Assembly: GCA_028718635.1 (NCBI GenBank)
Contig: JAQULK010000001.1
Span: 152,626 to 216,625, forward strand
Reading direction: 5' to 3'
Origin: Minisyncoccota bacterium
GTDB lineage: Bacteria > Patescibacteriota > Minisyncoccia > Phycocordibacterales > UBA9973
Length of the DNA: 64,000 nt
Shown one piece after another: positions 12,330-56,204 of the stretch (positions within the stretch are counted from its first letter, which is position 1; each line of letters begins with the position of its first letter). The notes beneath the pieces were generated by a model. The model was not told the origin of the DNA. It did not search any database and was given only the letters and a program-made list of their open reading frames with translations. A program made the translations under genes and the position numbers.

Positions 12330-12487
12330 ACTTTTTAGTTTTTTGTTGTATACTGTTTCTAATTTAATATTAAAAGAAAGTCATTGACACCCCCTATGAG
12401 TAACGGCGGGTGTATTGGATATTTTATACAAAAAAAATGAAAAATGACCCCGAAGGAAAGAGTACTTCCTACGGGGCAGGAAAAAAT

Positions 12488-29201: not shown

Positions 29202-29225
29202 ACAGATCATTCGTTTGATTGTTTC

Positions 29226-31310
29226 TTAATGCTCTATTTTAGTGGTGATAGTTTTCTTCGTAAATGGTTCGGTATAACCAAACAAATATCGTGCCAAGAA
29301 GATGAGAACGAGGATCAGAACGATTAGCAAGAGCCAGCCGAATAGATTTGTCGGGAAGAATCCAGCCCAGAAAGCGTTTGCTCCGAGGGGTACAACAATT
29401 TCATTTTCTGGATTACTCCAAACTTGTGCGGAAACATTTGCGCTTACTGATTGGTTTTGACCGGAAGGATCAGTGTAGTTCAAAGTTGCAGGGAAATTTA
29501 AGTTCGTTCCAGCAGGAATATTTTCTCGCACTCGAGTCCTGATGGTTACTGTCCCTTTGCCATTTGCTTTGAGTGTTCCTAGATTGAAGATTAAGGTATT
29601 GCCAGAGATAATCGGATTATTTGGATTAGAAGACAGATAATCTACTTCAAAAGGAAGATTTATTTGCAGATTAAGATTGGTAATTGACCCTGTGCCAATA
29701 TTTTGATAACTCACAGTGTAATTAATCTCATCTCCTGGGCGCGGTCTGGTGTTGTCTATGGTAGGAACTATTGGTTGATTGCGATCGATAGAAGAAGTGA
29801 TAAGCACGAGCGAAGTCGGAGTAGGTTTTGGACCAACGGGATTTCGAACACTTATTGTTTCTGAATCAGTAGCAGATCCAAAACTATTGCTACAGGTAAG
29901 GGTATAAGATTTACTACTCGTTAGTGATCCAGTGAAAAAACTTCCCGGACCAATACTTTTTGCTCCTGCCCAGCCGACAGATCCACCGCTTGCATAACAA
30001 GAAGTTGCATTGGTGGTAATCCAGCGAACAGTGGCAGTTCCATTATAAGGAACACTCACTTTATCTGAATAGACTGTTACCGTAGGTTGGTTATTTACAG
30101 CCCTATAGATACAAGGCAATACCCCTCTGTAATTTATAGCGTTAGGGTCTTGGCATACCTGAATATAATTATTGTAGGTACAAGGCAATACTCCCCCATA
30201 ATTATTAGCATTTCTGTCTAAGCAAGTTTGCTGTACTTGATTCACATATACCGTCGCAGAAGCGGTGGCACTCAAGCCGTTCGTTCCGTAACAAGTAATG
30301 CTGTAGGTGGTAGTGACATTTGGCACGACAATTCCAGAACCGGAAGTGGCATTACTGTTCATCCAGTAACCGGAACAGGAAGTAGCATTGGTAGAATACC
30401 AGGTCAAGGTAGAGTTTTGTCCAGATTGGATACTTGAAGGGCTAGCGTACAGAGTAACGGTAGGATTTGCGTTTTGGTATCTGCAAGGCAATGAACCACC
30501 GTAGTTTATCGCATTCGGATCTTGGCAAGTCTGTTGTGCTTGATTCACGTACACAGTAGCTTGTGCTGTAGCGCTCAAGCCGCTGGCGCCGTAACAAGTG
30601 ATACTGTATGTGGTGGTAATATTTGGTACGACAATACCGAAACCATTCGTAGCGGTACTTGAAGTCCAGTATGCGGAACAGGAAGTTGCGTTTGTGGAAT
30701 TCCAGGTCAAATTAGAGTTTTGTCCAGATTGGATAGTCGTCGGATTAGCATTCAAGGTAACAGTGGGTTGCTGAACTGGGCAAGGTGCAGTTGTATATGA
30801 TTGACTAGATGGTCCAGAACAATAGGCTCCTCCGTTAGCTGGAGCTGGATTAGTACAAGTGCGAGTTTGAGTGCCGGTGTATCCACATTGAGTAGACTGA
30901 GGACTCCAATCACTCCAGCCTCCGTTTATGGGAGTTGGGGTTGGGGTACAAGCGGGAGTGGTAATAGATTTAATACCACCAGTGTTAGTGCCGTAATTAT
31001 TTGTTACTATGAGTTCGAAATAATAGGTGGTACTTGGAGACAGGTTAGCGACAAATTGTTCAATTGGAAAAGTTCCTTCTGTATAAAAATATTTTGTCTC
31101 AGTTACCATTCCTCCACCGTTTTGCACGGTAGTAAAATCTGGACTGTATATAAACCTAGCATAGGCAGGAGGGGTGCCGGTAGTTACGTCACCAACAAAG
31201 GTTGCACTATTGCAAGTCAAAGCGGAAGCCTTAGATGGAATTATAAAAAAGCTAAAGAGTGCAAAGACACTCAATATCAACCCGATCGACAATTTTATTT
31301 TTTTATTCAT
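29226..31310 (-). CDS. Surface protein with signal peptide, Ig-like tandem repeats, DUF11-like domain and C-terminal TM anchor
   Basis: Signal peptide MNKKIKLSIGLILSVFALFSFFIIPSKASA; three copies of an 80-aa repeat (QPTVT..A.P..IQSGQNS.LTW.STNATSC..YW...); DUF11-like segment; C-terminal hydrophobic helix. Tandem DNA repeats of about 250 bp lie inside the gene. Confidence 0.7.
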   Translation of the reverse strand: MNKKIKLSIGLILSVFALFSFFIIPSKASALTCNSATFVGDVTTGTPPAYARFIYSPDFTTVQNGGGMVTETKYFYTEGTFPIEQFVANLSPSTTYYFELIVTNNYGTNTGGIKSITTPACTPTPTPINGGWSDWSPQSTQCGYTGTQTRTCTNPAPANGGAYCSGPSSQSYTTAPCPVQQPTVTLNANPTTIQSGQNSNLTWNSTNATSCSAYWTSSTATNGFGIVVPNITTTYSITCYGASGLSATAQATVYVNQAQQTCQDPNAINYGGSLPCRYQNANPTVTLYASPSSIQSGQNSTLTWYSTNATSCSGYWMNSNATSGSGIVVPNVTTTYSITCYGTNGLSATASATVYVNQVQQTCLDRNANNYGGVLPCTYNNYIQVCQDPNAINYRGVLPCIYRAVNNQPTVTVYSDKVSVPYNGTATVRWITTNATSCYASGGSVGWAGAKSIGPGSFFTGSLTSSKSYTLTCSNSFGSATDSETISVRNPVGPKPTPTSLVLITSSIDRNQPIVPTIDNTRPRPGDEINYTVSYQNIGTGSITNLNLQINLPFEVDYLSSNPNNPIISGNTLIFNLGTLKANGKGTVTIRTRVRENIPAGTNLNFPATLNYTDPSGQNQSVSANVSAQVWSNPENEIVVPLGANAFWAGFFPTNLFGWLLLIVLILVLIFLARYLFGYTEPFTKKTITTKIEH
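29880..30700. repeat. Tandem ~250-bp direct repeats (2 full plus 1 partial) within the surface protein gene 29226..31310
   Basis: Long near-identical DNA blocks (e.g. ...CAAGGCAATGAACCACCGTAGTTTATCGCATTCGGATCTTGGCAAGTCTG... vs ...CAAGGCAATACTCCCCCATAATTATTAGCATTTCTGTCTAAGCAAGTTTG...) encoding the repeated QPTVT...TW.STNATSC module. Confidence 0.6.
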
Positions 31311-31509
31311 GTTGTTTTTGCCTCTTTAGAGGTAGTTATTTTTTTAATTTTAAAGTAAAAATTCGACATTTTTACTTTCCGGAATTATGAATCTTAAACT
31401 AGCACTAATTCATAACTTTGGAAAGTAGTGGAGTTTCGTGTGTAAACAAACGAAACTCCACTATGATGTTAGCATTCCCAGAAATATAACTTAAGGAATG
31501 CCTAGAAAT

Positions 31510-32325
31510 TTAGCGACCACCGATGGTGTTGGCACCGGGGCCGACTCCTCCTCCGCGGTGTCCGCCACCACCACCTCGGTTGCCACCGCGTTGACCACCG
31601 TTGTTGAAGTTGTTGTTTATAACAACTCTTCCCCCCCTACCTCCTCTTCCGCTTTCTGTGGGGTAGTATACTGGACCGTTGCCCGGATAGTATACTGAAC
31701 CACTATAAGAAGGGGGATTACAGATGGGTCCAGCTGTAAAGCCGATGAACCCAAAAGGTCCTACGTCGACCCCAACACCATGCCTTGCGCATGGGTCCTC
31801 ATACTGTTGAGGTTGTGTTGCCGGTGCCGGTTGTTGTGCCGGCACGTTTACCATGATCACGGTCGGGGTGGTAGACGCTGGCTGGGTCACCACCTGCGAC
31901 TGGGTCATGTTTTGCGCCAGCTTTTGTGCTGGCTGCGAGGTGGGGGTAGCCGGGGGGCCGTAGGAAATCCCGTCTATAGGATTTCCGCAGTCGTCACGGG
32001 CGATGGGTCTTATAAGGACCCCATCTTTGGCTTCCCAGCGCAGGACTGTCCCAATTTCTTGCCCTACCCACTGCCAGCCGGCCGTAGTCAGCATGTGTGC
32101 GCAGAGATCCCTCTCTGTCGGAGCGGCGACTATTGTCGTCCCATTGACAGGATTTTTTCCCTTGAGACCGAAATATTTCGGCTCGTAGGAAGTGAAATCC
32201 TTTGTCGGCAATGAGTTTTCACACTTTGCCTTATCATTTCCGAAAAACCTCTGCTTTTCCGCGTTAGCAAACGCGGAATACAACAGTACGGTAGCCACTA
32301 GTGTGGCTAGGAATAGCTTTTTCAT
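31510..32325 (-). CDS. Secreted protein with Gly/Arg-rich C-terminal tail (unknown function)
   Basis: Start set at MKKLFLATLVATVLLYSAFA (signal peptide) with a strong SD AAGGAGG. C-terminus is GRGGRGGR...GGQRGGNRGGGGGHRGGG. A strong promoter lies upstream. Confidence 0.6.
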   Translation of the reverse strand: MKKLFLATLVATVLLYSAFANAEKQRFFGNDKAKCENSLPTKDFTSYEPKYFGLKGKNPVNGTTIVAAPTERDLCAHMLTTAGWQWVGQEIGTVLRWEAKDGVLIRPIARDDCGNPIDGISYGPPATPTSQPAQKLAQNMTQSQVVTQPASTTPTVIMVNVPAQQPAPATQPQQYEDPCARHGVGVDVGPFGFIGFTAGPICNPPSYSGSVYYPGNGPVYYPTESGRGGRGGRVVINNNFNNGGQRGGNRGGGGGHRGGGVGPGANTIGGR

Positions 32326-32398
32326 GGCTATTACCTCCTTTTTTATTAAAAAATTTATAGAACTTGTGAGGGAAATCCCCACTCCTTTTCCACCTAGG

Positions 32399-32431
32399 AT
32401 TGTATCATACCTTGACAAAAATGTCAATCTG
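32399..32431 (-). promoter_or_regulatory. Near-consensus sigma70-type promoter (TTGACA-17-TACAAT) for the Gly/Arg-rich secreted protein gene, with a palindromic -35 region TTGACAAAAATGTCAA
   Basis: Minus strand reads GATTGACATTTTTGTCAAGGTATGATACAAT about 65 nt upstream of the ATG at 32325. Confidence 0.6.
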
Positions 32432-39762: not shown

Positions 39763-40275
39763 CTAGTTCAGTATAGCTATTTCAGGTTTTTTCTCAAGTT
39801 TATTTTTTAACCAGCTGTTTTTTAAAAAATGTTCTTCATAATGACAATTTGGGCAAATAAGCTCTAAATTTTTGAGTTCATTATTATTTCTATCTCTGTT
39901 TTTATGATGAACTTGCAATATTTCATATTTATCATAATCACATTTCTCGCATTTTTTACCTCTTACTTTTAGCAATCTAAGTTTCAAAAGTTGTTGAGAC
40001 TTTACTTTGCTTTTTGAAGGTCTTCCGATTTTATATTTTATGCCTGTTCTGTATTTATTTGCACAACTTCTGCTACAAGTTTTTTTATTTAGGCCAGTCA
40101 AAATTAATTTTCCACACATTGAGCAGGGGATTTCTTTTCTAAGAGAAATACCATAACAAGCAGGACTACAAAAGACTCGACCCTTATTTGCTGCTATCTC
40201 AGAAGGTCTTCTATAAATTTCTTTTTTACAAATACTGCAATTAGTATTTGGATTTCTTTTATATGCCTCAGCCAC
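39763..40275 (-). CDS. HNH endonuclease with N-terminal zinc-ribbon repeats
   Basis: CEKCDYDKYEILQVHHKNRDRNNNELKNLELICPNCH HNH motif; GTG start; 12 nt from tRNA-Ser. Confidence 0.8.
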   Translation of the reverse strand: MAEAYKRNPNTNCSICKKEIYRRPSEIAANKGRVFCSPACYGISLRKEIPCSMCGKLILTGLNKKTCSRSCANKYRTGIKYKIGRPSKSKVKSQQLLKLRLLKVRGKKCEKCDYDKYEILQVHHKNRDRNNNELKNLELICPNCHYEEHFLKNSWLKNKLEKKPEIAILN

Positions 40276-43500: not shown

Positions 43501-43808
43501 ATAAAATAAATTTATTTAAAAAAGAGAAAAGTTTTAAGAAAAAAGATTTAACTTTCCATTCCAGTTTGTATTGGAGAATTATTCTTTTCGTTGCAGCTAT
43601 TATAATTCTTTTGTCTTTTATTTTCGGTTACCGTCTTTTCCTCCAAATAAATCAAGATCCTGCTTTGCCAATTGGAGACAATAGCGGACAACTTCCTTTG
43701 GTTAATAAAGACCGCATTGACAAGGCGTTGAATTATTTTTCCGAGAGAGAAAGCAAGTCGACAGAAATATTAAATTCTCCTGCGCCTATCGTTGACCCTT
43801 CGTTGTAA
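43497..43808 (+). CDS. Hypothetical small membrane protein (possibly pilus-associated)
   Basis: 103 aa with one TM; translationally coupled to the preceding gene. Confidence 0.35.
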   Translation: MNKINLFKKEKSFKKKDLTFHSSLYWRIILFVAAIIILLSFIFGYRLFLQINQDPALPIGDNSGQLPLVNKDRIDKALNYFSERESKSTEILNSPAPIVDPSL

Positions 43809-43924
43809 AAATGGTAATTTGAATAGGTGTTGAGAGGTAAGATTAATATTTGCGCGGTTAGCTGTTTTGGTAGGTCGTTAACTTAGAGTTAGTTATTAGG
43901 TAATTTTTTTGACAGTATAAATAT

Positions 43925-44000
43925 GCGCGGTTAGCTCAGTTGGTAGAGCAACTCATTTACACTGAGAAGGTCGGGGGTTCAAGTCCCTCACCGCGCACCA
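43925..44000 (+). tRNA. tRNA-Val (anticodon UAC), CCA encoded
   Basis: Acceptor GCGCGGT/ACCGCGC, D arm GCTCAGTTGGTAGAGC, anticodon loop TTTACAC, T arm GGGGGTTCAAGTCCCTC, 3' ACCA. Confidence 0.8.
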
Positions 44001-44011
44001 GAATAGAACTT

Positions 44012-44419
44012 ATGGAAAAATATCACAAAGAAAAAAGTAAAATAGAAAGGTGGTCGCCACAGGCAGAGGAAATAGAAAATTCAAAAAGAGAAATAAAAAT
44101 TCTTGCAAATAAATTAGTTGTTTTAGAAGATGAAATTAAAGTTTTGGAAGATAAAATGGTTGGAGTGAAAAATAAACTGAAAGGAATTATGCCTATGTCT
44201 AAAACCGGTAAAGAAAAAGAATTTAAAACTTTTAACTGTCATTTGAGGGAGCGGGAGGACTTTATCCAAAAAGAAATAGATAACAAAACGGAATTAATGA
44301 CGCTCTATAATATGGAGATGGAGGCTTTAGGGGTGTGGATTAATGGATTGCGAATGGATGAAAGAGTGGAAGATATTTTGTTTTCCGCCCAAGAAAGCCC
44401 ATCTAATCTTGAGAACTAA
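44012..44419 (+). CDS. Hypothetical coiled-coil protein
   Basis: ORF starts MEKYHKEKSKIERW. The ORF-track N-terminal extension overlaps tRNA-Val and was rejected. Confidence 0.4.
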   Translation: MEKYHKEKSKIERWSPQAEEIENSKREIKILANKLVVLEDEIKVLEDKMVGVKNKLKGIMPMSKTGKEKEFKTFNCHLREREDFIQKEIDNKTELMTLYNMEMEALGVWINGLRMDERVEDILFSAQESPSNLEN

Positions 44420-44648
44420 TATTTTATAATTTCGGTCCTGACAAATTCCGTTCAGCTTGATGGCTATATAAAAGATATGCGTCGACGTGATAAGGAACTT
44501 TCTAAAGGGTGGGGGCAAATTGCCACCCCCCTTTCGGTAGAGACAAAAGGTGGTAAACAAATGCTAAATTGCGCAAATTTGCAGGGTGTTTTCCGTATCA
44601 TTTGCGAATAGTGTCAGTGTGGGGATAAAAATGTAGTATAATAGATTT

Positions 44649-45476
44649 ATGGACAACGAAATCAAAATAGCCATTTTCAAAGGCAAGGAAATCAGAAAAA
44701 TCATTTATAATAATGAATGGTGGTTTTCGGTTGTGGATGTTATTGAAGTTTTGACGGATAGCGTCAATCCTCGAGATTATTGGTATAGAATGAAAGCAAG
44801 AGTTAAAGATGAGGATGGGGTTGAGTTGTCGACAATTTGTCGACAACTGAAACTGCAATCTTCCGACGGGAAATTTTATGAAACCGACTGTGCCAACACC
44901 GAAGGCTTATTTCGAATTATTCAGTCCATTCCTTCTCCTAAAGCCGAGCCACTAAAAAGATGGCTTGCCAAAGTGGGCTATGAACGAATTCAGGAAATTG
45001 AAGATCCTGAATTAGCCACCAAAAGAACACGAATTTTATACAAACTCAAAGGCTATCCCGACAACTGGATCGAAAAAAGAATGCGAGGCATCGCTATCCG
45101 CGAAGAATTGACAGACGAATGGAAAAAACGAGGAGCCAAAGAGCAACGGGAATACGAAATTTTGACAGCGGAAATTTCCAAAGCGAGTTTCGGTGTTACT
45201 CCGAGCGAATACAAAAAACTAAAAGGATTAAAAAGGGAAAACCTGCGTGACCATATGGACGATTTTGAACTTATCTTTAATATGCTCGGCGAAAGAGCTA
45301 CAACTGAAATACACAGAACTGAAAATTCCCAAGGTGTGGTAAAATTAAAAGCTGATGCTAAAGCTGGTGGCAGTATTGCCGGTGGGGCCAGGAAAAAACT
45401 TGAAAAACGATTAGGCCGGTCCATTGTTTCTAAAAACAATTTTAAGTTGTTAAAAAATAGGAAAAGGTTAAAATAA
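44649..45476 (+). CDS. Bro-N domain protein / DNA-damage-inducible protein D (DinD)-like
   Basis: N-terminal Bro-N-like segment (IKIAIFKGKEIRKIIYNNEWWFSVVDVIEVL) and a C-terminal DinD-like region (LRDHMDDFELIFNMLGERATTEIH...GGSIAGGARKKLE). TATAAT lies 7 nt upstream of the ATG. Confidence 0.65.
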   Translation: MDNEIKIAIFKGKEIRKIIYNNEWWFSVVDVIEVLTDSVNPRDYWYRMKARVKDEDGVELSTICRQLKLQSSDGKFYETDCANTEGLFRIIQSIPSPKAEPLKRWLAKVGYERIQEIEDPELATKRTRILYKLKGYPDNWIEKRMRGIAIREELTDEWKKRGAKEQREYEILTAEISKASFGVTPSEYKKLKGLKRENLRDHMDDFELIFNMLGERATTEIHRTENSQGVVKLKADAKAGGSIAGGARKKLEKRLGRSIVSKNNFKLLKNRKRLK

Positions 45477-45509
45477 AATCAAACTATGCCTTACACAAAC
45501 TTCAAAATC

Positions 45510-45524
45510 GAGAGAGAGAGAGAG
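45510..45524 (+). repeat. (GA)7 dinucleotide microsatellite abutting the GTG start of the beta-helix surface protein gene
   Basis: GAGAGAGAGAGAGAG immediately followed by GTGAATGAC. Confidence 0.8.
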
Positions 45525-48142
45525 TGAATGACGCTCGCCAATTTTGTCATCCTGAACTTGTTTCAGGATCTAATGCGTTTGCCAAAATAATAAAACTTTT
45601 CCGTTTCATTTTTTTCTTCTCGATATTTCTGGGAAGCTTTTTTGTTTTGGCAAACGAAGCAAGCGCGGCGACGTATTATGTGGATGCGACTCTTGGAAAG
45701 GATACATATAATGGTATAACCACAACTATAAATGATGGAGCAAGTGAAGGTCCATGGAAAACACTAACTAAAGTAAATGCCGCGCTGAATGCCGCTTCTA
45801 TTCATGCTGGTGATAGTGTTTTATTTAAAGCAGGGGAGACTTTCTTTGGCTATTTGTATGTTAAGGTAACGGGAACGGTAGGAAATATATTAACATTTGA
45901 TTCCTATGGAAGTGGAAATAAACCTATAATCGACGCTACTGGAAATAATAGCGGTATCGATCTTCGTGGAATAAATTATGTTACGTTTAATAATTTGGAT
46001 GTTAGAAATGCAACATTCCAAGGATACTTTTTTCTCAATGGAAATGACCACATAACAATAAATAATGGAAGTATATCTTCTTCTGCAAAGGCTATCCATC
46101 TCTATAACAATACAATTTCAAATCTAACAATTTCAAATCTAAATGCCAGTAATAATACATATGGTATTTATGGATTTGCCGGGGTTACTGTTAACACATT
46201 GTCCATATCCAATAGCCATTTCGACGACAACACATCAGAAGGTTTTTTCACCGATGGCACTGCGAACGGGAGTAATTTTACGATAACAGATACCACCATG
46301 TCCCGTAATGGGATCGGATCTGATAAAAATGGATTTTTACTACAAGGGACCGGCAGTACAGTTATCCTTACCAGGGTAACATCAGCCAACAACGGAGGGG
46401 ATGGATTTGGTGTCCATAACACTTGGATTGGTGTTATTTTTGATTATTGTACGGCGGATACTAACGGAACAGACGGGATAGGATCAGATGGAGACGGATT
46501 CAGTTTCCATGAGACTTCTTCTGGAATAATCAGGTATTCAATCAGCAAAAATAATTTAAAAACTGCGATTGCTCACGTTAATAGCTCCGCTGTTGAAATG
46601 TATTATGATCTTTTTTATCATGCAACCAATGGCACCTTGCCGCTTGTTTTATTACAAAATACTGGAAATCATAAATTATATAATAATATTATTTACAGTG
46701 GAAGTCAGACTGGTGATGCAGTAAGCGTTGAAGGGACCGTTGATATGCAAAACAATATAATAGATGGTTTCAATCGTGGCCTTATAAAAACTGGAGGAAC
46801 AATATCCAATGACCATGATATTATTTATGGAGTATTAACTTCTAATTATGTTGGTATTTCTGCCGGTGCTTATTCAATTATACAGGATCCAAAATTTTTT
46901 AATTCCAGTATTTATAACTTTTCCCTTCTCCCCACTTCCCCCGCCATCGACTCTGGCACCGATGTCTCATTAACCACCGACTACGCCGGCAATTCCATCT
47001 ACGGTACGCCCGACATCGGCGCTTATGAATACCAGCCGCCATATACCATGGGCACGGATGCAGTAAACACTTCCACCAGTGTCAGAATGTACGGAGACGA
47101 AAAGTTCAGAAACAAAACCGCCACCACCACGGAAACCACGGCTGATCTCTCAATTACCATTCCCGACTCGGATAAAACCAAGTGGCTGGACATAGCAGTT
47201 TCCACCTGGGACAACTCCGGAACTTATCACAAAACCTGGACGGAAAACACTACCAGCACCATTACCAACACCCTCCATACCATCGGAGACCTGGAACCCA
47301 ACAAATACTACAATGTGTCCGTGGATTCCGTTCTGGGAAACAACATTACCGGCGATAACTGTTCAAACGGCCTCTGTCTTTCCAACGCGGAAGGTAAAAT
47401 ATCTTTTACCTATACTGGTTCATATTCCGAACACACCTTTGACGTGGAAGAAGGAGATAATACCGCCCCCATCCGTTCCGCCGGTTTGCCTTCCGGCAGT
47501 CAACCTGCTGGCACAACGCAAGTAACAATGTCTTTGACCACCGACGAAAACGCCACCTGCAAATACTCCACCTCTGCCGACACCGCTTACGCTTCCATGA
47601 CCGATACCTTTACCACAACTGGCACCCAATCCCATTCCACCACCATTTCCGGTCTCTCCAACGGCAATACATACAATTACTATGTCCGCTGCACTGACGG
47701 CTCAAATGCTAACAGCAACGATTACCCTATTTCTTTTTCCATTACTAACCCTACCGCGCATTCTTCAGGCAACAGTGCTCAGAGTCGAATCAACAATCTG
47801 CTCTCCATGGGCAACTACACCCAAGCGCAACAATTGGCTAATCAATACAATATTTCAATTCCAGTAATTACCACCCCGCCTACAGCACCCCTCCTGAATC
47901 AAGGAGGGGAAAGAAGTGTTAATGCTTACAACTTTGGTCTCTCTGTTCTCAAAAAAGGAAGCAAAGGTGAAGCTGTCAAAGAACTCCAGAAGTTCTTAAA
48001 CCAAGATCTGAAACTAAACTTGAAAATAGATGGCATCTTGGGATCAAAAACAACTATGGCTATCAAACAATACCAAAAAGCGCATAATCTAAAAGTGGAT
48101 GGGGTAGTGGGGGAGAAGACGAAGGGGAGGATGGGGGTGTGA
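45524..48142 (+). CDS. Secreted right-handed beta-helix (pectate-lyase-like repeat) protein with C-terminal peptidoglycan-binding domain
   Basis: Hydrophobic signal-like segment then cleavage-like ANEASAA; many N.T.S..N..I/..N repeats typical of parallel beta-helix; C-terminal PG_binding_1-like segment (KGEAVKELQKFLNQ...IDGILGSKTTMAIKQYQ). GTG start preceded by a (GA)7 repeat. Confidence 0.7.
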   Translation: MNDARQFCHPELVSGSNAFAKIIKLFRFIFFFSIFLGSFFVLANEASAATYYVDATLGKDTYNGITTTINDGASEGPWKTLTKVNAALNAASIHAGDSVLFKAGETFFGYLYVKVTGTVGNILTFDSYGSGNKPIIDATGNNSGIDLRGINYVTFNNLDVRNATFQGYFFLNGNDHITINNGSISSSAKAIHLYNNTISNLTISNLNASNNTYGIYGFAGVTVNTLSISNSHFDDNTSEGFFTDGTANGSNFTITDTTMSRNGIGSDKNGFLLQGTGSTVILTRVTSANNGGDGFGVHNTWIGVIFDYCTADTNGTDGIGSDGDGFSFHETSSGIIRYSISKNNLKTAIAHVNSSAVEMYYDLFYHATNGTLPLVLLQNTGNHKLYNNIIYSGSQTGDAVSVEGTVDMQNNIIDGFNRGLIKTGGTISNDHDIIYGVLTSNYVGISAGAYSIIQDPKFFNSSIYNFSLLPTSPAIDSGTDVSLTTDYAGNSIYGTPDIGAYEYQPPYTMGTDAVNTSTSVRMYGDEKFRNKTATTTETTADLSITIPDSDKTKWLDIAVSTWDNSGTYHKTWTENTTSTITNTLHTIGDLEPNKYYNVSVDSVLGNNITGDNCSNGLCLSNAEGKISFTYTGSYSEHTFDVEEGDNTAPIRSAGLPSGSQPAGTTQVTMSLTTDENATCKYSTSADTAYASMTDTFTTTGTQSHSTTISGLSNGNTYNYYVRCTDGSNANSNDYPISFSITNPTAHSSGNSAQSRINNLLSMGNYTQAQQLANQYNISIPVITTPPTAPLLNQGGERSVNAYNFGLSVLKKGSKGEAVKELQKFLNQDLKLNLKIDGILGSKTTMAIKQYQKAHNLKVDGVVGEKTKGRMGV

Positions 48143-48244
48143 ATTCCTTTTTAAAATAATACAAAAATAGCAAGGGTGGTCTTGATATTTTTTGGCTAAA
48201 TATATACATTTGTGGTAGATTTGATAAAGTAGGATTTATAATAT

Positions 48245-48316
48245 GCCCTTGTAGTTCAATGGATAGAACAGAGCTCTTCTAAGGCTTCGATGTAGGTTCG
48301 ATTCCTACCAAGGGCA
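48245..48316 (+). tRNA. tRNA-Arg (anticodon UCU)
   Basis: Acceptor GCCCTTG/CAAGGGC, D arm GTTCAATGGATAGAAC, anticodon loop CTTCTAA, T arm TAGGTTCGATTCCTA. Confidence 0.75.
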
Positions 48317-48500
48317 CATGCGTGTGAGACCGACCGAGAGGCTTATTTTGTAAGCTTTTTGGAAAGTTGAATACAAAAAAAGTATTCCTAGTGGGGTACC
48401 TCTTAAGTTATTTGGAACCCAAAAATATTTAGGTTCTATTTTGTAAATTACATTACTATTTAATAGAGCTTGATTATAGAAAAAATGATATATTTATATC

Positions 48501-49253
48501 ATGGATAAAAAATCCAACAATAGAACATTCCTATTACCGCAATTCTCGCTTTTCGATATTCAAATAGGTGTGGGCGAAGAAGAATTCAAAAAAGGGTACA
48601 AATTATTTAATGACGGCAAGGTTGGGAAAATAAAGTCAGATATTCGTGGTTTTAGTGCCGCTGTTGCTGGTGCGCATCCTTATGAAGTATTTGTTGAAGC
48701 TAATGATTTTGACCAAGGGTCTTGCAGTTGCTACCTAGGGCAAAAAGACATTCTTTGTAAACATATGATTGCACTCGCTATTGCTGCAATCTTCAAATAT
48801 AATCCTGAAAACTTCAAGCTCATCACAAGTCCGCTTGATCGAGCAGTATGTTCTGGACAAATACGAGATATCACAAAAGAAGAATTAGTTGCTATCAAAA
48901 AAGAATTGAAACACGGATTATCATATATAAAATATTATGACGGACCGTCTTCAAAATGGTTTACGTATCAAGATACTTTGTTAAAAGGCGGGCGACTTAT
49001 GCGGTACGCACTTTCAAAACTTCCCATATGCGAAGAGTCGGCAAAGATATGTATTGATTTTCTTGTGAAGCTGGATAAAAAAGTTTGCAATGGGGTTGAT
49101 GATTCTGATGGAACAGTGGGTGAGCTTATGACAGATATAGTTGAAGTGCTAAATTTATTTGTAAGCAATAAACCTGACCTTCGTAATTTTATTAGTGAGC
49201 ACTTGCCAAAAGAAACCTCCTTTGGCTGGGAGAGGATGTTTGGTGTAATTTAA
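48501..49253 (+). CDS. SWIM zinc-finger domain protein
   Basis: CSCYLGQKDILCKHMIALAI matches the CxCxnCxH SWIM signature. Confidence 0.6.
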   Translation: MDKKSNNRTFLLPQFSLFDIQIGVGEEEFKKGYKLFNDGKVGKIKSDIRGFSAAVAGAHPYEVFVEANDFDQGSCSCYLGQKDILCKHMIALAIAAIFKYNPENFKLITSPLDRAVCSGQIRDITKEELVAIKKELKHGLSYIKYYDGPSSKWFTYQDTLLKGGRLMRYALSKLPICEESAKICIDFLVKLDKKVCNGVDDSDGTVGELMTDIVEVLNLFVSNKPDLRNFISEHLPKETSFGWERMFGVI

Positions 49254-49254
49254 T

Positions 49255-50304
49255 TTACTTCTTTCTATACCTCGTCGTCCTCCCTTGTCCGATGCGTTCC
49301 ACTTTTTTCAAACGCAAAAGAGTGTCGATTGCTTGTGATACAGTTGGTCTCGCTACTTTTGTGTTCTTTGAAATTTCTCCCGGGGTTGCTTCAGAAACTT
49401 TTTCAAGATATTCCCAAACCAAAAGCTGTTTTGGAGATAAAAGTTTTTCAATATTTTCTTTTGACAATAATTCAATTGCTTGCTTTGCCTGAGTGAGTAG
49501 AACATTAAAAAAGAATTCAAGCCATGGCTCAATATTTGCATTGTTAGATTTTAAAGTTTTCTGACTTTTGCGAAGAGCGATATAGTACTCAGCTTTGTTG
49601 TCTTCAATTAATTTCTCATGCGAGACATAAGGCATATACGCGTAGCCAGCCTGAAGCATCATTAAATTTGTTAGTACTCTGGAAAGTCTGCCGTTGCCAT
49701 CTTGGAATGGGTGAATATTTAAAAATTCAATTAAAAAATTAGCAACAATAAGCAGTGGGTGGATTTCTTTTTGAATAAAAGATTCTTTTGTCCATTCCAC
49801 TAACTCCTGCATTTCCTTTGGCGTAAGCCAAGCAGGCGTAGTATCAAATAACACGCCGACGGATTCACCAGCCTCGTTTATCATTTCAACCCTATTCTCT
49901 GTTTTTTTGTATTCGCCTCTGTGAAGCTTATCCTTCTCTACATACTTCAAAAGTTCTTTATGCAGATGCTGAATACTACTTTCCGAAAATGGTATTTTGT
50001 TATAAGAATTGAAAACATTATTCAGCAGTTCGTAATATCCTTGCACCTCCTGCTTGTCCCGATCAGCGAATTTTTGCATAGAAAGTCCGCGCATCATTTT
50101 TTCAACATCTTCGTCTGAAAGTTTTGCTCCTTCAATACGAGTTGATGCGCCAGCCGAAGTAATTAAAACCGAGCGTTTCAATCTTCCGAGCGCCTGCGGA
50201 TTTATCTCCGCTCCACCAATCCATCTTCCTTTTAACTCATCAATTTGGTTGATGATTGTCCATAGACTTTGTGGTATATTTTGAATACGTTTATTGTAAT
50301 TCAT
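49255..50304 (-). CDS. Fic family protein with C-terminal winged-helix domain
   Basis: Canonical Fic motif HPFQDGNGRLSRV; C-terminal HTH-like tail. Confidence 0.85.
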   Translation of the reverse strand: MNYNKRIQNIPQSLWTIINQIDELKGRWIGGAEINPQALGRLKRSVLITSAGASTRIEGAKLSDEDVEKMMRGLSMQKFADRDKQEVQGYYELLNNVFNSYNKIPFSESSIQHLHKELLKYVEKDKLHRGEYKKTENRVEMINEAGESVGVLFDTTPAWLTPKEMQELVEWTKESFIQKEIHPLLIVANFLIEFLNIHPFQDGNGRLSRVLTNLMMLQAGYAYMPYVSHEKLIEDNKAEYYIALRKSQKTLKSNNANIEPWLEFFFNVLLTQAKQAIELLSKENIEKLLSPKQLLVWEYLEKVSEATPGEISKNTKVARPTVSQAIDTLLRLKKVERIGQGRTTRYRKK

Positions 50305-50391
50305 ATATTAATTAATCTAATGTATTAACTATATGAGATTATATTAGATTAGTTTAATAAAAGCAAGTTTTTTATAATTTTTTAGCACAAT

Positions 50392-51033
50392 ATGAAAATC
50401 AGAAAAATAACTCAAATACTCATCGTGGTGTCGGTTATCGCTATTATTTTTATCCTTTTTCGTTTGGATTTGTCGGGAGTAGAAACTCCTGGTTATTTGA
50501 TCTGGAATCTTTTTTTAGCTTGGATACCTTACATAATTTCTTCGTATTTTATTAAAAAGGAAACATCAATAAGTATTTTTATACCATTGTTTATTTTCTG
50601 GCTTTTGTTTTTCCCAAATGCTCCATATTTAGTGACTGATGTTACGCACATAGTCTCGAGTCCTGCGTCCTTCGTGTGGTATGACAGCTTGCTCTTCTTT
50701 TTCTTCGGATGGGTCGGTTTGCTTTTGGGAATGGTTTCTCTTTATCGTATTCATCAATATTTCAAAAATCATTTAAGCAATTTTATTTCTGAACTGATAA
50801 TTTTTGTTATTTGTTTTGTTTCGAGTTTCGGAGTGTATTTGGGAAGATTCGAAAGATGGAATAGCTGGGATCTTTTTTTAAACCCATTTAATTTAATTAA
50901 GCAGTCAGTTAATATTTCAGCTGACCTCATTAATGCAGGCGCCCCATTAATTTTTGTCGGCATATTTACTATATTCATGTACTCAGTTTATAAAACAGTA
51001 TATATTCTGATTGCAGATAACTCTGAATTATAA
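50392..51033 (+). CDS. DUF1361-like integral membrane protein
   Basis: WNLFLAWIPY and FFPNAPYLVTD motifs in a 5-6 TM protein. Confidence 0.5.
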   Translation: MKIRKITQILIVVSVIAIIFILFRLDLSGVETPGYLIWNLFLAWIPYIISSYFIKKETSISIFIPLFIFWLLFFPNAPYLVTDVTHIVSSPASFVWYDSLLFFFFGWVGLLLGMVSLYRIHQYFKNHLSNFISELIIFVICFVSSFGVYLGRFERWNSWDLFLNPFNLIKQSVNISADLINAGAPLIFVGIFTIFMYSVYKTVYILIADNSEL

Positions 51034-51797
51034 TGCCAGCAATAACAAATTCAAAAATAAAAGTTTTATACGAGGATGCAAATATCCTGGCCATAGACAA
51101 ACCGTCTGGAATTTTGGTGCACCCTGACGAAAGAAGTAAAGAGAAAACAATTTTAGATTTATTTATAAAAAAATATCTGAAATTAGAGATAGTGCATAGA
51201 CTTGATAGAGAGACTTCCGGAGTTCTCTTGTTGGCTAAAAATAAAAAAGCTCACGAATTTCTAAAAAAACAATTTCAAAATCGGGAGATAAAAAAAGTTT
51301 ATCATGCTATCGTTTCCGGCAATGTAAAAAATGAGAGGGGGATAATAAATAAGCCAATCGGGCGAAGCCCGAAAGATTTTCGCCGTTATTCGGCTGGCAG
51401 AGGAGCCCGGGGAGAGATGCGAGAAGCGATAACCCAGTATAGGGTTTTGAAACGTTTTGTTGCTAAGGCGAAGCTTCAAGAAATTTTACATCCCCGAGGG
51501 TCCCACTCCGCAGGAGAAGGGCGCAGGGGTGGAAAATTACTTGAAGCGAAGCCACAAAGATTTACCTATCTGGAAATAAGACCAAAAACTGGCCGGACGC
51601 ATCAGATCAGGGTGCATATGAAATATTTGAATCATCCCATTGTGTGCGATTCGCTTTATAATCCTGATAATCCTTGCCCGAAAGGCATTTTTCGAGTGGC
51701 CCTGCATGCCAAATCCATAGAATTTAAGAACTTAAAAGGGGAAACTATAAAAGTGGAATCCGCAATTCCAAAAGAGTTTGAGAAGGTGGTAAAATGA
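51033..51797 (+). CDS. RluA-family pseudouridine synthase
   Basis: HRLDRETSGVLLLAKN catalytic motif and TGRTHQIRVH. Contains a GC-rich, roughly 30-aa in-frame insertion. Confidence 0.85.
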   Translation: MPAITNSKIKVLYEDANILAIDKPSGILVHPDERSKEKTILDLFIKKYLKLEIVHRLDRETSGVLLLAKNKKAHEFLKKQFQNREIKKVYHAIVSGNVKNERGIINKPIGRSPKDFRRYSAGRGARGEMREAITQYRVLKRFVAKAKLQEILHPRGSHSAGEGRRGGKLLEAKPQRFTYLEIRPKTGRTHQIRVHMKYLNHPIVCDSLYNPDNPCPKGIFRVALHAKSIEFKNLKGETIKVESAIPKEFEKVVK

Positions 51798-54327: not shown

Positions 54328-54849
54328 ATGCCAATAGTTAAATGCAAATTATGTTCAAAAGAATTTTATGGTAAACCATTTTTTCTAAAGAATGGTTGGG
54401 CTAAGTATTGTTCTACCGCATGTCAGTACAAAGCTAGACGAAGTGGAAAATTTTTACCCTGCGAGATTTGTGGAGAAAAGACCTATAAACAGTTAAAAAG
54501 ACTAAAAAAATCTAAAAGTGGTAAATTCTTTTGTAGCAAGTCTTGCCAAACAGTGTGGAGAAATCAAGAATTCATAGGAATTAAACATCATAATTGGAAA
54601 ACTGGGTTATCTGCTTACAGAAGCGTATTGGCGAGAAATAAGATTCCTAAATTTTGCAATTTATGTAGAACAAAAGATGAAAGAGTTCTTTCTACCCATC
54701 ATATTGATAAGAATAGAAACAATAATCATGTATCAAATCTTGCATGGCTTTGTAACAATTGTCATTTTTTAGTTCACCATTATAAAGATGAATCCTTGAA
54801 ATTTAAAAAAAATCTGTCAGTATATAGAATACGAGGTAAATCCTCATAA
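54328..54849 (+). CDS. HNH endonuclease with N-terminal zinc-ribbon repeats (paralogue of 39763..40275)
   Basis: CRTKDERVLSTHHIDKNRNNNHVSNLAWLCNNCH HNH motif; flanked by tRNA-Leu (105 nt upstream) and tRNA-His (4 nt downstream). Confidence 0.8.
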   Translation: MPIVKCKLCSKEFYGKPFFLKNGWAKYCSTACQYKARRSGKFLPCEICGEKTYKQLKRLKKSKSGKFFCSKSCQTVWRNQEFIGIKHHNWKTGLSAYRSVLARNKIPKFCNLCRTKDERVLSTHHIDKNRNNNHVSNLAWLCNNCHFLVHHYKDESLKFKKNLSVYRIRGKSS

Positions 54850-54929: not shown

Positions 54930-56204
54930 ATGAAAAATAAAATCAGAAATACCTTTCTTTCGCTTAGAATAAGAAATTACAGATTGTATTTTATTGGTCA
55001 GGCAATTTCTTTGTCTGGTACATGGATACAGACAATCGCTCAGGGTTGGCTTGTATTACAACTAACACATTCAGGTACTCAGCTTGGAATTGTGTACACT
55101 TTTCAATTTTTACCGATTCTTATTTTGGGTCCCTGGGGCGGGTTGGTTGCTGATAGATTTTCAAAAAGAAAGATTCTCTATTTAACCCAAGGTATTTTTG
55201 GTGTTTTGGCTTTAGTATTAGGTATTCTTGTTTTGACTCATAGTATCCAAATTTATATGGTTTATATATTCGCCTTAATCCTTGGATTAGTCAATGTTAT
55301 AAACAGCCCAACATTACATACCTTTATTCCAGAGATGGTAGGAAAGGAGAATTTACAAAATGCAGTTTCTTTAAATGTAATGGAGTCTAATTTAGCTCGT
55401 GCTATTGGGCCAGCCTTAGCTGGAATTTTAATTTTATCTGTTGGAATCGGTTGGTGTTTCATTTTTAATGCAATCTCCTTCATTGCCGTAATTATTGCTT
55501 TTTCCATTATGAAGGAAAAGGAGTTACATTTAACTTTTAGAGCTCAAAATAAAAGTGGGCAATTAATGGAGGGTTTGCGTTATGTGCGATCTAACCCAAT
55601 TCTTTTTAACACACTTCTAATGATGGCGATTATTGGTACTTTGTCGTATGAATTTGCCACTTCGCTGCCATTAATCGCTCAATATACTTTTCATGGCGAT
55701 GCTGGAAGTTATGCATTTTTGCAAACTTTTATAGGAATTGGATCTGCTGTAGGTGGCTTGCTGGCAGCCAGCAGAAAAAAAATATCCTCTAATATGATTG
55801 TTGTGTCGGCCATGGGGTTAGGCGTATCTTTAACAATTGCCGCATTTATGCCAAATATTTTTCTTATGATTTTAGTTATGTTTATTGTCGGCATATTTTC
55901 TATTAATTATATTTCTTTAAGTAATACAACTTTACAAACGGAAAGCAGACCAGAAATGCGGGGTCGAGTAATGGCACTTTGGACAGTGGCCTTTCTTGGA
56001 TCCACGTCAATCGGTGGACCAATCATTGGTTGGATTGGAGAACACATAGGTCCACGTTACGGGTTAGCCGTAGGAGGAGTAGCCGCAATTATCGCTGCTT
56101 TTATTGGAAAAATTAAAATTGCACGCAATAATGAAACACATATTGTTTCTAGTGAAACAAAAATATTAGAAGAAGAAGTCGGCGAACAAATGAACTTAAA
56201 ATAA
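54930..56204 (+). CDS. MFS transporter
   Basis: 12 TM with MFS loop motifs (G.LVADRFSKRK). Confidence 0.8.
   Translation: MKNKIRNTFLSLRIRNYRLYFIGQAISLSGTWIQTIAQGWLVLQLTHSGTQLGIVYTFQFLPILILGPWGGLVADRFSKRKILYLTQGIFGVLALVLGILVLTHSIQIYMVYIFALILGLVNVINSPTLHTFIPEMVGKENLQNAVSLNVMESNLARAIGPALAGILILSVGIGWCFIFNAISFIAVIIAFSIMKEKELHLTFRAQNKSGQLMEGLRYVRSNPILFNTLLMMAIIGTLSYEFATSLPLIAQYTFHGDAGSYAFLQTFIGIGSAVGGLLAASRKKISSNMIVVSAMGLGVSLTIAAFMPNIFLMILVMFIVGIFSINYISLSNTTLQTESRPEMRGRVMALWTVAFLGSTSIGGPIIGWIGEHIGPRYGLAVGGVAAIIAAFIGKIKIARNNETHIVSSETKILEEEVGEQMNLK

Follow-up and report, generated by a model that had tools for sequence, protein, structure and literature searches.

The segment studied here lies at positions 43851-50304 of a 64,000-nucleotide (nt) stretch of DNA, referred to below as the window, from a metagenome-assembled genome (MAG) of a Minisyncoccota bacterium, a member of the candidate phyla radiation (CPR, or Patescibacteria). 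It carries tRNA-Val(TAC) (43925-44000, plus strand; ARAGORN, Rfam 70.1 bits), an open reading frame (ORF) for a coiled-coil protein of 135 amino acids (aa), termed cc135 (44012-44419, plus), genes for a Bro-N/DinD-related protein (44649-45476, plus) and an 872-aa beta-helix protein (45524-48142, plus), tRNA-Arg(TCT) (48245-48317, plus; ARAGORN, Rfam 70.8 bits), a gene for a 250-aa SWIM zinc-finger protein (48501-49253, plus) and a gene for a 349-aa, SoFic-like Fic protein of class II with a C-terminal winged helix-turn-helix (wHTH) domain (49255-50304, minus). A preliminary description had read this content as a single accessory island bounded by tRNA-Val and tRNA-Arg, perhaps a degraded integrative element or a host-interaction island. 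All of the features that it named were found where it had placed them and the accessory nature of the DNA was borne out, but the island proved not to be single. We put at roughly 0.7 the probability that the span combines two accessory insertions, independent of each other, at a hotspot that varies throughout the lineage and is formed by the neighbouring genes tRNA-Val(TAC) and tRNA-Arg(TCT).

Accessory DNA at two tRNA junctions

Relatives were collected with PilM as the query, which yielded 38 species-level loci at 46-89% identity; the top match was apparently the source genome, leaving 37 relatives for comparison, and the 38 loci were compared using tblastn and ARAGORN. Gene names at the locus are taken from Pfam, pilO and h103 being our own labels, and cargo marked below as read from translation was recognized in relatives by ORF reading with no Pfam scan behind it. 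The usual order in relatives is ruvX-pilM-pilN-pilO-h103-tRNA-Val-tRNA-Arg(tct)-rluA-(zf567, a Zn-ribbon protein)-rplS-tRNA-Leu-tRNA-His, the bracketed gene being optional, and tRNA-Val, the left anchor of the hotspot, is kept 3' of the pilMNO-h103 cluster across relatives. The spacer between tRNA-Val and tRNA-Arg measures 2-37 nt in most relatives, and rluA comes directly next in most of those with enough downstream sequence. In the window, the two tRNA genes are 4244 nt apart, rluA lies 2.7 kb past tRNA-Arg, and the accessory DNA totals ~6.3 kb. The closest relative, L015, matches the window at the DNA level over 43790-43998 (84%), 48240-48318 (95%) and 50391-51785 (76%). Since L015 homology breaks exactly at the tRNA ends, two inserts were delimited: Insert A (4.24 kb; 44001-48239, plus strand), between tRNA-Val and tRNA-Arg, and Insert B (2.07 kb; 48319-50390, no strand assigned), between tRNA-Arg and DUF1361/rluA. 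Each starts only 1-2 nt away from where a tRNA gene ends, and neither is present in L015 or in other relatives; cc135 and the Bro-N, beta-helix and SWIM genes were found at this locus in none of the 37 related species-level genomes. The tRNA-Arg gene, 95% identical to that of L015, is the junction of the two inserts and sits inside the span, not at its edge. On the right, a gene for a DUF1361 membrane protein (50392-51033, plus; Pfam E 4e-41) forms a semi-variable flank, L015 alone among the relatives having DUF1361 at this locus (76% identity).

Both junctions hold other cargo in relatives. Between tRNA-Val and tRNA-Arg lie a CxxC/H-rich 109-aa ORF read as HNH-like, with no Pfam match (L001), an EEP nuclease gene (L011), Fur-like and ZIP-like metal-homeostasis genes read from translation (L023) and an alpha/beta hydrolase gene (L030). 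Between tRNA-Arg and rluA, an EamA transporter gene is found in L015, where it occupies the position of Insert B (Pfam), and in L001 (86% identical to the L015 copy, tblastn); L001 also carries a Fic gene together with genes for Nudix-like and ABC-type proteins, the latter two read from translation, and L014 an ABC transporter gene, likewise read from translation. The same junction in L022 holds a Cys-rich 499-aa protein labelled SEC-C-like, with no Pfam match, a large serine recombinase and, identified by Pfam, an N6_N4 methylase and a ResIII helicase, the last two of which look like a type III restriction-modification (RM) system. Because relatives carry unrelated cargo at both junctions, the synteny comparison that the preliminary description had proposed gave the opposite of a gene order conserved across the lineage. 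The segment is accessory, and what it represents is a variable hotspot of an ordinary kind rather than a mobile element that is still intact.

The duplicated 5' fragment of tRNA-Val had been taken as one boundary of the island. This duplicate is real: the 35-nt element ATTTGCGCGGTTAGCTGTTTTGGTAGGTCGTTAAC (43848-43882, plus) has a 13-nt exact match to the 5' end of tRNA-Val (0.05 expected) and 85% identity to it over 26 nt. However, it is not an island boundary, and its reading as an att scar of the island is ruled out, since a 100% identical element is present in L015 (about 12950-12985) and L036 (4501-4535), neither of which has the island. In these two relatives it lies ~75 nt 5' of tRNA-Val, and the DNA around it differs among the window, L015 and L036 despite the identity of the element itself; it is missing from L001, L002 and L003. 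The element is an older feature, separate from the island; it may have a regulatory role or be left over from an old att site.

Signs of mobility were then sought in the window. Pfam detected no recombinase or integrase in the island ORFs, the flanking genes or any scanned window ORF, and tblastn of the serine recombinases of relatives against the window found nothing (best E 0.99). The intergenic gaps of the island (229, 183 and 87 nt) are too short for a hidden integrase pseudogene. No second copy of the 3' end of tRNA-Val or tRNA-Arg(tct) was found in the window at up to 3 mismatches, a separate tRNA-Arg(gcg) gene being the sole other match; for serine integrases, long direct repeats are not expected. 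The preliminary description had also proposed a composition scan, and the inserts proved host-like. Only in the T/S-rich tail of the beta-helix gene does their tetranucleotide distance exceed the window mean, and GC, GC3 and codon adaptation are all within ~1.5 standard deviations of the background; the T/S-rich deviation also occurs in surface-protein genes at 27-32 kb, which deviate more. Compositional foreignness of the inserts was rejected on these grounds. An Rfam scan of the window returned tRNAs only, and promoter and terminator scans gave counts no greater than in shuffled sequence.

A link to mobile elements came from a 22-nt motif, GTGAGACCGACCGAGAGGCTTA, which begins 7 nt past tRNA-Arg (48324-48345, plus) and occurs once in the window, with 0 copies expected. 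Elsewhere, 142 searched loci contained 2 copies: in L022 the motif directly follows tRNA-Arg(tct) and in L013 tRNA-Arg(gcg), and past each copy comes a large serine recombinase, the two enzymes having 90% identity; viral contigs contained none. Recombinases at tRNA-Arg in relatives share a Resolvase+Recombinase+Zn_ribbon architecture and have defence cargo alongside. The motif is a candidate for the end of a serine-recombinase element, and GTGAGACCNACCGAGAGGCTTA could be either element-derived or ancestral flank. Other traces are 14-nt copies of the tRNA-Arg(tct) 3' end in L001 (5490-5503), where the resident tRNA-Arg is a divergent copy, and L002 (12818-12831); they lie 155-190 nt downstream of the gene and are att-like scars of earlier integrations. 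Judged from the shared motif, Insert B most likely arrived on, or is a recombinase-less remnant of, a large-serine-recombinase element that landed 3' of tRNA-Arg. Our confidence in this origin is moderate, because the motif has three instances only and none in viral contigs. The idea of a degraded integrative element, as first proposed, fits Insert B but neither Insert A nor the span as a whole.

Fic and SWIM genes of Insert B

The Fic protein (Pfam Fic E 2.4e-16) has the catalytic motif HxFx(D/E)GNGRxxR as HPFQDGNGRLSR at residues 198-209 (H198-PFQDGNGRLSR) and the inhibitory motif (S/T)xxxE(G/N) as STRIEG at residues 54-59; an inhibitory motif in the N-terminal part defines class II Fic proteins (PMC12249575). 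Against the PADLOC SoFic model it scores E 1.9e-45, with 83% of the model aligned (positions 51-349 of 361). Its best match in PDB is 8uqu (E 2e-33), and the SoFic entry is matched at E 3e-7. By these profile and structure matches, the protein is related to SoFic but would not be its ortholog. SoFic-type proteins are single-gene abortive-infection defences, with the additional participation, in E. coli, of a small antitoxin encoded downstream (PMC12249575). As in the preliminary description, the SWIM and Fic genes are convergent, with stops at 49253 and 49255, and the Fic protein has a wHTH domain, whose signal is weak (sub-threshold Pfam matches at residues 289-348).

The promoter region of the Fic gene (50313-50351, minus) contains three ATCTNAT half-sites that flank a TATAAT, an arrangement conserved in five orthologs. 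The central base of the half-sites covaries on both arms, being A/T in the window and L004, C/G in L141 and G/C in L140. This covariation is good evidence that the half-sites constitute a real operator of the Fic gene, and we infer that the wHTH domain binds and represses the promoter of its own gene. The L004 ortholog, with 88% amino-acid identity and 81% DNA identity including the promoter, lies 4 nt away from tRNA-Arg(gcg), on its 3' side; the 3' ends of tRNA-Arg(tct) and tRNA-Arg(gcg) differ at 2 of 22 positions. The L141 ortholog (74% identity), on an IMG/VR contig, has a large serine recombinase on one side and an AEP-TOTE helicase on the other.

The SWIM protein (Pfam SWIM) belongs to a family of 123 homologs at 36-79% identity, all named members of which are from CPR bacteria, and the motifs CxC...CxH and GVDDSDGTVG are invariant in the family. 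Besides the SWIM finger, the protein has a helical domain, predicted with confidence, in which GVDDSDGTVG lies (AlphaFold2 predicted local distance difference test (pLDDT) score 94). The predicted fold had no PDB match at E<0.001, the best being ZSWIM8 at E 0.05, and no homolog was found in 2.9 million viral contigs. The N-terminal region matches the PADLOC model PDC-S62 (E 1.5e-13). Homologs lie directly after a Fic gene (L131, L135), after AbiEii (L129/L130), after AAA_21-RloB (L136/L137), after an MmeI-type RM gene with a DinD-type Bro-N gene (L133/L134), or beside an M23 peptidase and a PIF1 helicase (L138/L139). A defence-type neighbour is thus present in 5 of 6 contexts, a small sample that is consistent with a shared defence-island neighbourhood. 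The SWIM protein could be a sensor, a regulator or an antitoxin-like component, and Fic and SWIM together could form an uncatalogued two-gene defence system. In L135 and a related 54.5-kb ENA contig, a Fic-SWIM-152aa block and an AAA_21 gene lie between the EF-Tu and EF-G genes, so that accessory genes interrupt a normally conserved translation cluster.

Bro-N and beta-helix genes of Insert A

The small coiled-coil ORF that opens Insert A exists as described. cc135 had no family match in Pfam or NCBIfam and marginal matches only in PHROG and PADLOC. A search of 1.84 billion representatives gave one true full-length homolog (35% identity, E 3e-12), which sits in an unrelated gene context. By this search cc135 is a near-orphan.

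The Bro-N domain of the neighbouring protein spans residues 14-108 (Pfam E 2.7e-14). Almost the entire protein, residues 1-272, aligns with positions 1-273 of 286 of the PADLOC model PDLC04920 (PDC-S13; E 6e-120), and its full length matches PHROG 15286 (E 3e-93). More than 8000 homologs were found, the best 120 of which, at 78-89% identity, come from CPR phyla, Nitrospirota, Margulisiibacteriota and Saganbacteria. Four-fold degenerate third positions among homologs are only 21-44% identical, that is, synonymous sites are saturated, indicating that the family is conserved by purifying selection and not through recent spread. The GC content of the homolog genes (P0002-P0120) follows that of the host (0.34-0.52). 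Such constraint is unusually strong for a patchily distributed accessory gene. The protein had been called DinD-like, which holds at the profile level and not pairwise: E. coli DinD is represented by the model PDLC04919 and matches PDLC04920 at E 2e-16 in its C-terminal part only, and direct homology or orthology to DinD was rejected because neither BLASTP (E 0.27) nor hhalign (E 0.063) was significant. On the PADLOC profiles, the protein is best placed in a sister subfamily of E. coli DinD. A structure prediction was not usable, because its pLDDT was 63.5.

The neighbours of Bro-N genes at 80 metagenome loci are diverse, with a minority of RM, Cas, RhuM, Fic, HepT and IS200 genes. Homologs are not enriched near tRNA genes, since ~6% of loci have one nearby against ~5% by chance (a rough estimate). 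As the preliminary description had noted, a TATAAT (44637-44642) stands close to the start codon of the window gene, 6 nt 5' of the ATG at 44649. Several orthologs have TATAAT 6-8 nt before the start (window 44637-44651; L039, L040, L118), which suggests that their transcripts may be leaderless. The imperfect palindrome upstream, AAATTGCGCAAATTT, did not hold up as an operator: its 8-bp core occurs at roughly the chance frequency, and it is not conserved 5' of ~75 orthologs. No conserved upstream motif, including an operator or an SOS box, was found among these orthologs.

The beta-helix protein, confirmed by Pfam (Beta_helix and PG_binding_1) and preceded by a (GA)7 repeat, has, besides the beta-helix, a signal peptide, T/S-rich and Fn3-like regions and a tail with PG_binding_1, and matches choice-of-anchor Q in NCBIfam. 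Its nearest homolog has ~40% identity, and every named homolog is a modular CPR protein; from its sequence, it is predicted to be a fast-evolving, cell-wall-anchored CPR surface protein. Two hairpins lie in the region coding for its signal peptide, one at 45547-45571 with an 8-bp stem (ATCCTGAA...TTCAGGAT) and one at 45576-45656 with 23-nt arms of 87% complementarity, and this region folds at z = -2.1 relative to shuffles. The first, the 'HPELVSGS' hairpin, was considered as a dispersed repeat and rejected, being single-copy in the window and absent from all loci searched.

Frame analysis of the upstream ATG and the repeat (45486-45526, plus) places the canonical start under the influence of the tract. 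The (GA)7 at 45510-45523 is the sole dinucleotide run of at least 6 units in the window. With (GA)7, the frame of ATG 45486 reads MPYTNFKIERERE and stops after 13 codons, one GA unit out of frame; with (GA)6 or (GA)9, the same ATG reads MPYTNFKIERER(ER)VNDARQF... in frame into the full ORF. Homologs share an N-terminal motif, [KE]RER(ER)nV, encoded by tracts of (GA)5 to (GA)12, and unit counts of 5, 6, 7, 8, 10 and 12 were seen between genes. Such tracts stand at the 5' end of CPR beta-helix-family genes in L039 (1226-1270), L040 (6955-6985), L054 (1185-1215), L077 (1730-1753, minus) and L116 (6151-6162, minus). The tract would fit a slipped-strand contingency switch of the canonical start codon; it is equally possible that (GA)7 is an assembly error, or a fixed frameshift that is harmless with a GTG start, both of which count against such a switch. 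A GTG start after the tract could still give a protein with a signal peptide.

Across 724 kb of Bro-N-bearing loci, there are 5 distinct (GA/TC) tracts of at least 5 units, all within ~200 nt of the end of a Bro-N gene. A surface-protein gene is the neighbour at ~5 of 78 Bro-N loci. A conserved operon of Bro-N and beta-helix genes was rejected as a rule on this count, and the association with the (GA)n 5' module is non-random; a family member with the RERERERV motif, P0309, has no Bro-N neighbour. In three other genomes, Bro-N is flanked by direct repeats with 80-88% identity: of 108 nt in L039 (222-329 and 1238-1342), 76 nt in L040 (5984-6059 and 6975-7050) and 34 nt in L054 (200-233 and 1134-1167). 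In L039 and L040, each repeat duplicates the 5' module, (GA)n plus signal peptide, of the surface-protein gene that follows, and the repeat junction lies directly after the signal-peptide cleavage codons. These repeats suggest a cassette-like insertion of Bro-N that may bring a replacement 5' module. A duplicate of the beta-helix 5' module was not detectable 5' of Bro-N in the window, the alignment score being below the shuffled mean. It is a tentative and rather unlikely proposition that both parts of a wider picture hold jointly, namely that SWIM is a new partner of class II Fic/abortive-infection modules in CPR bacteria and that Bro-N travels as a cassette into (GA)n/signal-peptide modules. 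If true, phase-variable surface proteins would become linked to a candidate defence gene through the Bro-N cassette.

Origin of the inserts and alternative explanations

From the domain and motif content, the recurrent neighbourhoods, the shared 22-nt motif and the operator covariation, we propose an explanation that covers mode of arrival, autoregulation, anti-phage function and phase variation. The tRNA-Val/tRNA-Arg pair would provide two landing sites, to which serine-recombinase elements, and perhaps other processes, deliver cargo that is later eroded to recombinase-less modules. Insert B would derive from this element family, its recombinase lost or never retained. The Fic AMPylase would be held inactive by its own N-terminal inhibitory helix, would repress its own promoter through the wHTH domain and, like SoFic, might act as an abortive-infection toxin on phage attack; the (GA)n tract would switch the canonical start of the beta-helix gene in and out of frame. 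The retained cargo would then comprise a self-repressed, self-inhibited Fic with a SWIM companion, a solo DinD-related protein and a variable wall-anchored surface protein.

Several findings weigh against parts of this account. The arrival by a mobile element rests on indirect evidence, because neither a recombinase or integrase nor att repeats were found in the window and its k-mer composition, GC3 and codon usage are host-like; the 22-nt motif, with its three instances and none in viral contigs, could be an old tRNA-Arg flank kept patchily, and Insert A has no link to any mobility mechanism. As to defence, the Fic protein scores 53.6 bits against the NCBIfam SoFic equivalog, for which the cut-off is 550, and cc135 and the beta-helix protein carry no defence signal. 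PDC-S13, PDC-S04 and PDC-S62 are candidates chosen by 'guilt by embedding', not proven defence systems (bioRxiv 10.1101/2024.01.29.577857), and many neighbours of Bro-N homologs are housekeeping genes.

Among the rival explanations, a host-interaction island would have at its core the beta-helix protein, as an adhesin or polysaccharide-active enzyme in episymbiosis, with Bro-N, SWIM and Fic regulating or modifying the interaction. The signal peptide, beta-helix and PG_binding_1 tail of a fast-evolving CPR surface family, a (GA)n tract like the contingency switches of surface antigens, the position of Bro-N directly 5' of such surface genes in L039, L040 and L054, and the fact that some Fic proteins are effectors on host cells (PMC12249575) all speak for it. 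Yet this Fic has no secretion signal and has a wHTH domain and an intact autoinhibitory helix, the SWIM, Fic and Bro-N homologs mostly cluster with RM, Abi and AAA_21-RloB genes and not with surface proteins, and few Bro-N loci have a surface-gene neighbour. Of the earlier suggestion of such an island, what may hold is a role in host interaction for the beta-helix surface protein only; the other genes match anti-phage candidates in PADLOC. For the whole span we regard it as unlikely. Less probable still, and already largely refuted, is that the whole span is one degraded integrative element at tRNA-Val, whose integrase has been lost and of which the 5' fragment is the att scar. The span does lie 3' of a tRNA gene, is absent from relatives, is accompanied by a duplicated tRNA-Val fragment and resembles mobile or accessory DNA in gene content. 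But an intact, conserved tRNA-Arg stands mid-span with independent cargo at each junction in relatives, the fragment is on the 5' side of tRNA-Val and is identical in the island-less L015 and L036, the far end lacks a 3' tRNA repeat, and there is neither an integrase nor room for its pseudogene.

A prophage remnant, with Bro-N as antirepressor and the beta-helix/PG-binding protein as a relic of a tailspike or endolysin, is suggested by PHROG matches to anti-repressor Ant families (Bro-N domain), endolysin families (PG-binding tail) and phrog_15286 (Bro-N full length). We consider it highly improbable: Pfam and PHROG revealed no capsid, terminase, portal, tail or replication genes, the PHROG matches being confined to Bro-N, PG-binding and Fic families; the endolysin matches do not extend beyond the PG-binding domain of 60 aa; the beta-helix protein starts with a signal peptide and falls in a cellular CPR surface family; SWIM is absent from the viral contigs; and the composition is host-like. 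Just as remote is an assembly artefact in which contigs of different populations were joined at conserved tRNA genes. In its favour, the source contig (671,958 bp) is part of a MAG, and the tRNA genes at the edges of both inserts are highly conserved in sequence, tRNA-Val being 100% identical to that of L001. Such an artefact would require three consecutive chimeric joins, and it is opposed by insert GC, GC3, codon usage and tetranucleotides that match the flanks and by the different, genuine cargo that relatives carry at these junctions. Two independent insertions remain the reading that we favour.

So understood, the locus resembles tRNA-linked hotspots and defence islands in that a fixed tRNA junction holds differing cargo among relatives (RM, Fic and others), a recombinase-borne element occupies the same spot in one relative, and the window cargo matches defence or candidate-defence models. 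It differs from them in its host, a reduced-genome CPR bacterium, in having two adjacent junctions (Val-Arg and Arg-rluA), in the lack of integrase, att repeats and compositional signal, and in that about half of the accessory DNA is a surface-protein gene and not defence. With large-serine-recombinase elements it shares the 22-nt junction motif that the elements of relatives have directly after tRNA-Arg; unlike them, the window has no recombinase gene. The Fic protein shares HPFxDGNGRxxR, S-xxx-E-G and a C-terminal wHTH-like domain with SoFic (PMC12249575; PDB 3eqx), but its match to Shewanella SoFic is only E 3e-7 and its closest solved relative is 8uqu; it also lacks a small downstream AS1-like gene, the 250-aa SWIM gene, convergent with it, instead ending right at its stop codon, and in other CPR genomes a SWIM gene follows Fic within an operon. 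Compared with E. coli DinD/PDC-S13, in which Bro-N lies within type I RM, the window protein likewise has an N-terminal Bro-N, a length of ~275 aa and a C-terminal domain shared at the profile level, and its homologs are sometimes beside RM and Fic genes. It belongs, however, to PDLC04920 and not to PDLC04919, and is a solo gene, not RM-embedded. As in the simple-sequence-repeat contingency loci of Neisseria, Haemophilus and Campylobacter, a dinucleotide tract in the 5' coding region would set the frame of the start codon by its unit number, and tract length differs from gene to gene among beta-helix family members; unlike in those loci, a GTG start past the tract could still yield the window protein with its signal peptide.

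Further variable sites were observed in the window and its relatives. A small HNH gene (39763-40275; weak sub-threshold Pfam HNH matches) stands beside tRNA-Ser(tga), and an ORF ~30% identical to it, with no Pfam match, lies at 54328-54849 between tRNA-Leu and tRNA-His. Together with the HNH-like ORF between tRNA-Val and tRNA-Arg in L001 (4904-5233), these tRNA-adjacent genes each occur in some relatives only. The most deviant composition of the window (GC 0.41-0.46, k-mer z up to 3.9) is at 26946-32427, 3' of tRNA-Arg(gcg), in a region that is variable among relatives and encodes large secreted proteins (PG_binding_1+PKD+Flg_new; DUF11+TSP_1). Directly 3' of tRNA-His, an MFS transporter gene (54930-56204) has no counterpart at the locus in any relative and is another tRNA-adjacent accessory gene. 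L015 has an insertion of ~400 nt (12467-12905) with a 118-aa minus-strand ORF without a Pfam match, flanked by a 19-nt direct repeat of the h103 3' end (CGTTGACCC(C)TTCGTT...TAA).

The locus offers several leads: a CPR-specific SWIM family near Fic, AbiE and AAA_21-RloB genes, a constrained yet patchy DinD-related family, and possible (GA)n phase variation of CPR surface proteins. Follow-up would be most rewarding for the association of SWIM with Fic and for the (GA)n modules of surface genes. CPR bacteria have very small genomes, and little is known of how they take up accessory DNA and resist phages. This locus provides a concrete, comparable example, in which the tRNA-Val/tRNA-Arg junction is a recurrent landing pad across a Paceibacterota family: in relatives, serine-recombinase elements at the junction carry RM and Fic cargo, and in the window the same place holds a recombinase-less candidate defence set.

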